Shown here piece by piece: positions 6,108 through 6,747 of a DNA stretch of 6,747 bases. The notes beneath the pieces were generated by a model. That model was not told the DNA's origin. It saw only the letters and a list, made by a program, of their open reading frames with translations, and did not search any database. This stretch comes from Escherichia coli (GTDB lineage Bacteria > Pseudomonadota > Gammaproteobacteria > Enterobacterales > Enterobacteriaceae). Every line of letters starts with the position of its first letter. Position 1 is the first letter of the stretch. A program made the position numbers and the translations under genes. The stretch lies in assembly GCF_050320075.1 (NCBI RefSeq), contig NZ_CP190024.1; one strand, given 5' to 3'.

Positions 6108-6251
6108 ATGAAAAAAATAACAGGGATTATTTTATTGCTTCTTGCAGTCATTATTCTGGCTGCATGTCAGGCAAACTATATCCGGGATGTTCAGGGCGGG
6201 ACCGTATCTCCGTCATCAACAGCTGAAGTGACCGGATTAGCAACGCAGTAA
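6108..6251 (+). CDS. Colicin release / lysis lipoprotein (bacteriocin release protein)
   Basis: 47-aa ORF absent from the ORF track because of its length. [47 protein letters not shown] has a signal peptide and lipobox (LAAC, lipidated Cys at position 20), typical of colicin lysis proteins. Strong RBS AAGGAG at 6097-6102; last gene of the col-imm-lys operon. Confidence 0.9.
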
Positions 6252-6278
6252 CCCGAAATCCTCTTTGACAAAAACAAA

Positions 6279-6311
6279 GCGTGTCAGGCTGATTCTGATG
6301 CGCTTTTTTTT
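6279..6311 (+). terminator. Rho-independent terminator of the colicin operon
   Basis: Stem GCGTGTCAG (6279-6287) / CTGATGCGC (6295-6303) with a 7-nt loop and two G-U pairs, followed by T8 (6304-6311), just after the lysis gene stop. Confidence 0.75.
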
Positions 6312-6439
6312 GAAATGTCACAAAAGTTCCATGTGGGAGATGGGATCTAAAATCCCTGTGCAGAACCTTCCATCCGGTGGGAGAAAACTTGTCATTTTGA
6401 CCTGTTCGCCATTCGGAACGGTCGAAACCGATCGCGTAT

Positions 6440-6590
6440 CGCTTTCGTGCATAGTTATGCAGCGCCCTAAAAACGATTCTGACGCATTTTTCTGGTTCAG
6501 CCTGGTGTTTCCTTGTCTTTTTGCGTTTTTTGCGTCAGAACGCGTCTGAGAGCGTTTTAAGGGGTACGTACAACAGGAATTATGGTAAAT
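6440..6590. other. cer-like Xer (XerC/XerD) multimer-resolution site with upstream accessory sequences
   Basis: Core at 6563-6590: GGTACGTACAA-CAGGAA-TTATGGTAAAT. The XerD arm is identical, and the XerC arm has one mismatch, to ColE1 cer (GGTGCGTACAA-TTAAGGGA-TTATGGTAAAT) as I recall it. About 110 bp upstream is a palindrome with ARG-box geometry, TGCATAGTTATGCA (6449-6462), plus 9-bp inverted repeats TCTGACGCA (6478-6486) / TGCGTCAGA (6531-6539). Confidence 0.65.
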
Positions 6591-6644
6591 GGATCGGGTT
6601 TGCGGGAAGGATCGACAGGATTTGCCGTTGGGTGTAGTGTAAGC

Positions 6645-6745
6645 GACTGAAAAACAAACGCCCCTGAAATCATGTCCAGATCCGGCAAGATTCAACATGA
6701 AATACAGAGGGCGTGTAGGTCGCATAACCCGGAGAGAATCGTAAC
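6645..6745 (-). ncRNA. Candidate antisense copy-control RNA (RNAI-like) complementary to the rep mRNA leader
   Basis: In ColE2-type plasmids an approximately 115-nt antisense RNA complementary to the rep 5' UTR controls Rep translation. On the minus strand, if the molecule is circular, a promoter-like pair spans the junction: TTGAAG (complement of 13-18), 16-bp spacer, TACGAT (complement of 6738-6743). Downstream, imperfect stem arms (complement of 6705-6713 and 6659-6666) are followed by a T-rich tract, GTTTGTTTTTC. Ends are approximate. Confidence 0.35.
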
Positions 6746-6747
6746 AC

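Follow-up and report, generated by a model that had tools for sequence, protein, structure and literature searches.

Positions 6380-6590 of the window, by which we mean the whole 6,747-bp stretch of DNA analysed here, very probably constitute (at a probability of roughly 0.88, judged from the sequence) a cer-type, ArgR/PepA-controlled multimer-resolution site of a ColE2/ColE3-family colicin plasmid, with a 28-bp core. The Xer site of the window is of an already known kind, namely the ordinary XerCD dimer-resolution site of a ColE2/ColE9-type plasmid, and it combines a common architecture with a central region that is a rare point variant. What was established directly, and is described below, is the sequence of the site, its register and geometry, its homology and its distribution. 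The following elements were located.

6380-6562, no strand assigned: accessory sequences next to the XerC arm (about 180 bp, predicted to be wrapped by PepA and ArgR), placed by homology, with an approximate left boundary
6446-6463, no strand assigned: 18-bp ARG box, a putative ArgR site, assigned from cer-family homology and position
6448-6461: core palindrome of the ARG box, TGCATAGTTATGCA, with a 12/14 match to the cer Arg-box core
6465-6563, no strand assigned: nested long-range inverted repeats (6465-6475/6553-6563 and 6477-6486/6531-6540)
6563-6573, plus strand: XerC-binding arm GGTACGTACAA, identical to the ColE1 cer XerC arm at 10/11 positions and the same as the arm of the tested pRS218 xrs
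6574-6579, plus strand: central (strand-exchange) region CAGGAA, 6 bp, in the sole register that fits both arms
6580-6590, plus strand: XerD-binding arm TTATGGTAAAT, of cer type, identical to ColE1 cer at 11/11 positions

The core site and its register

The arm sequences of ColE1 cer, verified against the actual ColE1 record, were taken as the query. With a 6-bp gap between them, they matched 21 of 22 arm positions at 6563-6590. This was the single match in the whole window when both strands were searched, and none of 200 dinucleotide-preserving shuffles matched the same pattern at ≤ 3 mismatches. The initial annotation had reported GGTACGTACAA-CAGGAA-TTATGGTAAAT at 6563-6590, and both the coordinates and the sequence are exact. 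The site has the two 11-bp XerC and XerD arms, separated by a central region of 6-8 bp, by which cer-type sites are defined (PMC11724359, PMC2699498). The stricter description of ColE1 cer, with an 8-bp central region and a 30-bp core, does not apply to 6563-6590.

The length of the spacer follows from the arms. When the XerD arm was anchored, the XerC arm scored 10/11 with a 6-bp spacer, 3/11 with 7 bp, and 4/11 with 8 bp; when the XerC arm was anchored, the corresponding scores of the XerD arm were 11/11, 4/11 and 2/11. The cer arms with a 7- or 8-bp gap gave no match in the window at ≤ 3 mismatches. Moreover, in a multiple alignment, the relatives with 8- or 7-bp central regions (pColR, p19A14 and p2015AM) forced a gap of two columns or one column into the central region of the ColE2 family. 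The 6-bp spacer of the initial annotation therefore stands, both arms fitting in that register alone, and the equally good 8-bp alignment that it had named as the counter-case was looked for and was absent. An 8-bp (or 7-bp) cer-like architecture, in which the 6-bp reading would be an artefact of alignment, is refuted by the arm scores, and we take its probability to be practically nil.

Among 16 aligned sites, the XerD arm was invariant in 11/11 columns. The outer positions of the XerC arm varied among the relatives, and its inner AA and GG..CG were invariant.

Accessory region and plasmid context

The ARG-box-like palindrome that had been noted upstream of the core is present at 6448-6461, where it matches the cer Arg-box core at 12 of 14 positions. 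No other such match occurs in the window; one was obtained in 6 of 200 shuffles. A search with the generic chromosomal ARG-box consensus misses this palindrome at ≤ 3 mismatches, so that the assignment to ArgR rests on cer-family homology and on position. The window ARG box aligns with the ArgR sites shown in bold for ColE3, ColE1 and NTP16 (PMC11724359 Sup file 1). It lies 99 bp upstream of the XerC arm, in keeping with the cer-type layout of an accessory sequence of ~ 180 bp on the XerC side and an ARG box ~ 98 bp from the XerC arm.

The distance from the start of the ARG box to the XerD arm was 132 bp in the window, in ColE1 (8-bp central region), in CloDF13 (6 bp), and in an NTP16-like site (7 bp), and 133 bp in three other sites with an 8-bp central region. 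In the same sites, the distance from the ARG-box start to the XerC arm ranged from 113 to 115 bp. The near-constant spacing to XerD, together with the variable spacing to XerC, indicates that differences in central-region length are offset just upstream of the XerC arm.

The homology shared with other plasmids spans the stretch from about 170-230 bp before the core to just beyond it. The start in the window was at ~ 6379-6395 for the Col156-type 5-kb plasmids, ~ 6336 for the IncF plasmids, and ~ 6425 for the ColE1-type plasmids, and all of these alignments reach the core. This extent agrees with the length of the accessory sequence in cer-type sites, ~ 180 bp (PMC2699498, PMC2409434). Homology to characterised members covers the whole site: the xrs of pRS218 is 90.1% identical to the window site over 191 nt including the ARG box, and the accessory sequence of ColE3 can be aligned. 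The accessory region by itself is 90% identical to that of the pRS218 site and 90-95% identical to those of other ColE2-family sites. It contains T/A tracts at 6469-73, 6487-91, 6518-22, 6526-31, and 6555-58. We know of no usable consensus sequence for PepA.

The initial annotation was thus correct in describing an Xer core that has cer-like arms, a central region of genuinely 6 bp, and an accessory region of the ArgR type. Two other classes of site share features with it. The psi and dif sites also have a 28-bp core, a 6-bp central region and A as the final central-region base; psi uses ArcA and PepA, and dif depends on FtsK and lacks accessory sequences (PMC11724359, bioRxiv 10.64898/2026.02.23.706985). 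The XerD arms are TTATGTTAAAC in psi, TTATGTTAAAT in dif, and TTATGGTAAAT in the window. The site does not belong to the psi type (ArcA/PepA), given this difference in the XerD arm and an accessory region that is homologous to the ArgR type. A dif-like, FtsK-activated xrs, with a 28-bp core, no accessory sequence, and a place on a chromosome or large replicon, would agree with the window site in the length of the core, and a response to FtsK is known for 28-bp xrs only. However, the window site possesses an ArgR-type accessory region, which FtsK-type xrs lack, and it resides on a plasmid of 6.7 kb; the replicons that carry FtsK-type xrs are larger than about 115-250 kb (PMC11724359). Its XerD arm is of the cer type, whereas dif and the sites of large replicons have TTATGTTAAAT, and the pRS218 homologue recombines in an ftsK mutant (PMC11724359). 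We consider a dif-like site extremely unlikely.

The window is a complete, small and mobilizable colicin plasmid of the ColE9 type, 6,747 bp in length. Over this full length, E. coli pACN001-D (NC_023325.1) and three further records match it at 100% identity; for pColE8 and for ColE2- and ColE9-type plasmids, the identity is 92-98%. The RefSeq genes on the plasmid encode a MobQ relaxase, colicin E9, the immunity and lysis proteins, a replication initiation protein, and one small ORF. As expected for carriers of cer-type sites, it is a small multicopy plasmid without a resolvase of its own (6,747 bp; rep, mobQ, colicin, immunity and lysis only). The Xer site is intergenic, between the lysis gene and rep, ~ 157 bp upstream of the latter, and carries no annotation in the RefSeq and PLSDB records. 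The xrs of ColE3-CA38 was placed in the “replicon region encoding Rep protein” (PMC11724359), which matches the position of the window site.

A terminator-like hairpin followed by a T-run was found at 6276-6306 on the plus strand, just 3′ of the lysis gene. It is probably the terminator of the colicin operon, and it forms the left boundary of the intergenic region that contains the Xer site. Two mechanically called ORFs run across the Xer site and its accessory region (6265-6549, plus strand, 94 aa; 6318-6725, minus strand, 135 aa). Both are probably spurious, since they are unannotated in the RefSeq records of the identical plasmid.

The nested inverted repeats of the accessory region may represent an Rcd-like RNA or an architectural element. 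The minus-strand RNA fold of the accessory region had z = -4.1 to -4.4 (0/200 shuffles), against z = -0.8 for the plus strand. In ColE1, whose cer encodes Pcer/Rcd, the best fold of the equivalent region is that of the plus strand (z = -4.55), and in CloDF13 both strands fold well; ColE1 and CloDF13 also have analogous inverted repeats, which differ in sequence. The direction implied for Rcd by published accounts is from the ArgR side to the core, and this corresponds to the plus strand here. Covariation within the ColE2 family was not significant (16-sequence alignment; 64/500 shuffles were as good), and when the complete window was compared with Rfam (E ≤ 1), the Xer region gave no match and two weak, irrelevant matches lay elsewhere. 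A promoter and terminator scan of 6200-6747 detected no sigma-70-like promoter inside 6380-6590; therefore, no analogue of Pcer can be named within the Xer site.

Length and sequence of the central region

The initial annotation described the 6-bp central region as standing in place of the 8 bp of cer, which takes ColE1 as the norm. As reported by Fournes et al. 2025 (PMC11724359), ColE3, ColA, CloDF13 and pJHCMW1 carry previously characterised 6-bp sites with ArgR accessory sequences. Their listing gives GGTGCGTACAA CGGGAG TTATGGTAAAT for ColE3, and the central regions CGGATG for ColA, GGGATG for CloDF13, and CAGATG for mwr of pJHCMW1. The spacers of other sites are 6 bp in pSC101 psi, 7 bp in NTP16, and 8 bp in ColE1 (PMC11724359). 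The complete list comprises 185 unique enterobacterial xrs. The exact 28-mer of the window is missing from these 185, and the nearest entry, GGTACGTACAACAGGAGTTATGGTAAAT, is 1 nt away; the list also has GGTACGTACAACGGGAG... and GGTGCGTACAACAGGAG... (PMC11724359). A cer-type XerD arm was found in 55 of the unique entries, of which 32 are 28 bp long, 16 are 29 bp, and 7 are 30 bp. Hence, 6 bp is the commonest central region among the published cer-type xrs (32/55, versus 7/55 with 8 bp).

We also retrieved 14 relatives of the site, from ColE2-, ColE8- and Col156-type plasmids of E. coli, Salmonella and Enterobacter and from two IncF plasmids. All 14 have a 6-bp central region (CGGGAG, CGGGAA or CGGGAT) and an identical XerD arm, and 12 of the 14 have the same ARG-box spacing as the window. 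More distant, ColE1-type relatives, with sites 59-67% identical, have central regions of 7 or 8 bp. A 6-bp central region is the normal, already catalogued design for ColE2/ColE9-type plasmids and for most cer-like sites.

Several sites are mosaic. In pColR, a Klebsiella IncF plasmid and two others, accessory regions of the window/NTP16 type (59-67% identical to the window) are joined to the 8-bp core of ColE1 (TTAAGGGA), to another 8-bp core (TACTGGTA), or to a core with 7 bp, a pattern suggestive of an exchange of modules in or close to the core. A ColE2-type module was also observed inside IncF conjugative plasmids (pRS218 19500-20300; pEco15-2). Besides the accessory region and the xrs, it includes a “plasmid replication protein” that is truncated, and both the module and the window are assigned to rep_cluster_2131. 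Entry of this module into IncF plasmids by Xer recombination at the core was considered and rejected: the core is not at the junction, being flanked in pRS218 by the accessory and rep sides as in the small plasmids.

The sequence of the central region is less common than its length. The PLSDB queries were 38 nt long and could be matched by megablast only if the central region was exact or nearly so; under these conditions, the CAGGAA context was found in 5 of 72,556 records, all of them ~ 6.7-kb E. coli plasmids, and the corresponding counts were 15 for CGGGAA (1 exact), 66 for CAGGAG, and 943 for CGGGAG. The CAGGAA and CGGGAA contexts together account for ~ 20 PLSDB records, against ~ 1,000 for those ending in GAG, and the ColE2-family core as such occurs in about 1,000 PLSDB plasmids. 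Of the 943 records with a CGGGAG site, 390 are conjugative plasmids. Among 5,426 complete E. coli genomes, the CAGGAA context was present in 6 and was always plasmid-borne. All carriers in PLSDB and in the E. coli genomes are closely related plasmids of ~ 6.3-8.3 kb. One record with two exact copies of the site, NZ_CP187286.1 (8,301 bp), was rejected as a natural two-site plasmid. It is flagged as linear, its rep region is duplicated at both ends and its genes are frameshifted, and we attribute the second copy to an untrimmed overlap of the long-read assembly.

The last base of the central region (6579) is A; of the 32 cer-type xrs of 28 bp in the catalogue, 30 have G and 2 have T at this position. 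Together with the restriction of the exact context to five PLSDB records and six E. coli genomes with closely related plasmids, the lack of this A from the catalogued sites could mean that the site is decayed or inactive, CAGGAA being a disabling mutation in one recent plasmid lineage. Nevertheless, both arms and the accessory region are intact, and the central-region sequence is “not conserved” among active xrs (PMC11724359). The A adjoining the XerD arm is found in dif, psi and cer themselves (PMC11724359), the related CGGGAA variant is present in pColE8 and other plasmids, and the two copies in a dimer would be identical, preserving homology. An inactive site is accordingly very unlikely in our view.

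It is also conceivable, albeit improbable, that CAGGAA with A beside the XerD arm is functionally meaningful, either through psi- or dif-like completion by XerD with weaker accessory dependence, or as a barrier of homology. The latter, if true, would stop Xer-mediated cointegration with the very abundant CGGGAG and CAGGAG sites of Col and IncF plasmids in the same cell. In E. coli XDL, pXDL-4 (CAGGAA) occurs together with pXDL-5 (CAGGAG). Both are ColE2-family plasmids, and their cores differ at the last central-region base alone; the site regions of the two are 99.5% and 93% identical to the window.

Expected recombination behaviour

The closest tested relative of the window site is the xrs of pRS218, which provides the sole functional data for ColE2-family sites (PMC11724359). 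The two sites have identical XerC and XerD arms, a 6-bp spacer, and an identical ARG-box core with the same spacing. They differ in the central region, which is CGGGAG in pRS218, and in the replicon, a 114-kb conjugative IncF plasmid as opposed to a 6.7-kb multicopy plasmid. The xrs of ColE3-CA38 resembles the window site in its place upstream of rep, in an ArgR-type accessory sequence that is alignable throughout, in the same XerD arm, and in the 6-bp length; its XerC arm is one base apart (G4 -> A), and CGGGAG differs from CAGGAA at 2/6 positions. ColE1 cer shares the XerD arm, 10/11 positions of the XerC arm, the ArgR/PepA-type organisation, and the 132 bp between ARG box and XerD arm, but has an 8-bp central region (TTAAGGGA) and an accessory sequence that is only ~ 50% identical. 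The sites CloDF13 parB, ColA and mwr combine a cer-type XerD arm, a 6-bp central region and ArgR-type accessory sequences, as does the window site. Their XerC arms are different, with a weaker match to cer, their central regions are GGGATG, CGGATG and CAGATG, respectively, and their accessory sequences are unrelated to that of the window (48-50% identity).

When cloned as direct repeats and assayed in vivo, the pRS218 xrs recombined in the wild type and, at a normal level, in an ftsK mutant, did not recombine in a xerC mutant, and showed intermediate recombination (+/-) in a pepA mutant (PMC11724359). In the pepA mutant, ColE1 cer (8 bp), which is fully PepA-dependent, and pIGRW12 (6 bp) gave no product, and psi was intermediate (PMC11724359 Table 1). 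In the classification of Fournes et al., recombination of the pRS218 site proceeds “in a PepA-dependent manner” (PMC11724359). The 6-bp site mwr depends on ArgR and PepA, halts at the Holliday junction like cer, and is sensitive to osmolarity and supercoiling (PMC2699498).

These results bear on two claims of the initial annotation. Its expectation that the site may behave differently from cer is favoured by the pRS218 homologue, which keeps intermediate recombination in the pepA mutant where ColE1 cer has none. Its further argument was that spacer length affects the order of strand exchange and the dependence on accessory proteins and FtsK; yet 6 bp alone does not imply dif- or psi-like control, as pRS218 is FtsK-independent, pIGRW12 is fully PepA-dependent, and mwr halts at the Holliday junction as cer does. 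Given the strong cer-like arms and the 6-bp central region, the PepA dependence of the window site is probably less absolute than that of ColE1 cer, as was measured for pRS218.

A more far-reaching version of this difference would be a relaxed site, whose strong cer arms and 6-bp central region would allow XerCD to recombine it largely without PepA and ArgR, also between molecules. The accessory region would then merely modulate the reaction; this is a difference of degree and overlaps with the ArgR/PepA-controlled reading. The intermediate phenotype of the pRS218 homologue, unlike the complete loss seen with ColE1 cer and pIGRW12, points in this direction. The type II cer/parB hybrids attributed to Summers in 1989, which have cer arms and a 6-bp central region, are also said to have lost topological selectivity. 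Conservation across the family of the accessory region, the ARG box and their spacing (12/14 relatives for the spacing) argues, on the other hand, that accessory control is under selection. The PepA dependence that Fournes et al. ascribe to pRS218 (PMC11724359) speaks likewise against relaxation, as do the fully accessory-dependent 6-bp sites pIGRW12 and mwr, and position 4 of the window XerC arm is A, as in CloDF13 parB, and not the G of cer. Sites “such as cer3” recombine without accessory factors, yet are regulated by them when these are present (PMC2409434). Altogether, we hold a relaxed, cer3- or type II hybrid-like site to be possible but rather doubtful, and prefer the ArgR/PepA-controlled resolution site.

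For the preferred reading, protein binding, strand-exchange order and factor dependence are proposed from the homology of the site with cer, with mwr, and with the pRS218 site that was assayed, within the general Xer mechanism (PMC2409434, PMC2699498, bioRxiv 10.64898/2026.02.23.706985). ArgR would bind the ARG box, which precedes the XerC arm by 99 bp, and the flanking accessory DNA would be bound by PepA. The two accessory regions of a dimer would interwrap about three times. Only an intramolecular synapse would then activate XerC on GGTACGTACAA. XerC would cleave the top strands at the left border of CAGGAA and exchange them. The resulting Holliday junction would be completed to two monomers either by XerD (on TTATGGTAAAT) or by Xer-independent host processing. 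FtsK is expected to be dispensable for the reaction.

It is plausible, by analogy, that the window site behaves somewhat unlike cer, in the way documented for pRS218. The literature already shows that ColE1, with its 8-bp central region, is exceptional among cer-type sites, and that PepA dependence is only partial in 6-bp sites with strong arms like that of pRS218. If CAGGAA altered the strand-exchange order or recombination across plasmids, this would be a modest addition to Xer biology. The finding has little importance beyond correct annotation; naming the site as the XerCD/ArgR/PepA dimer-resolution site of the plasmid is useful for plasmid annotation and vector design.
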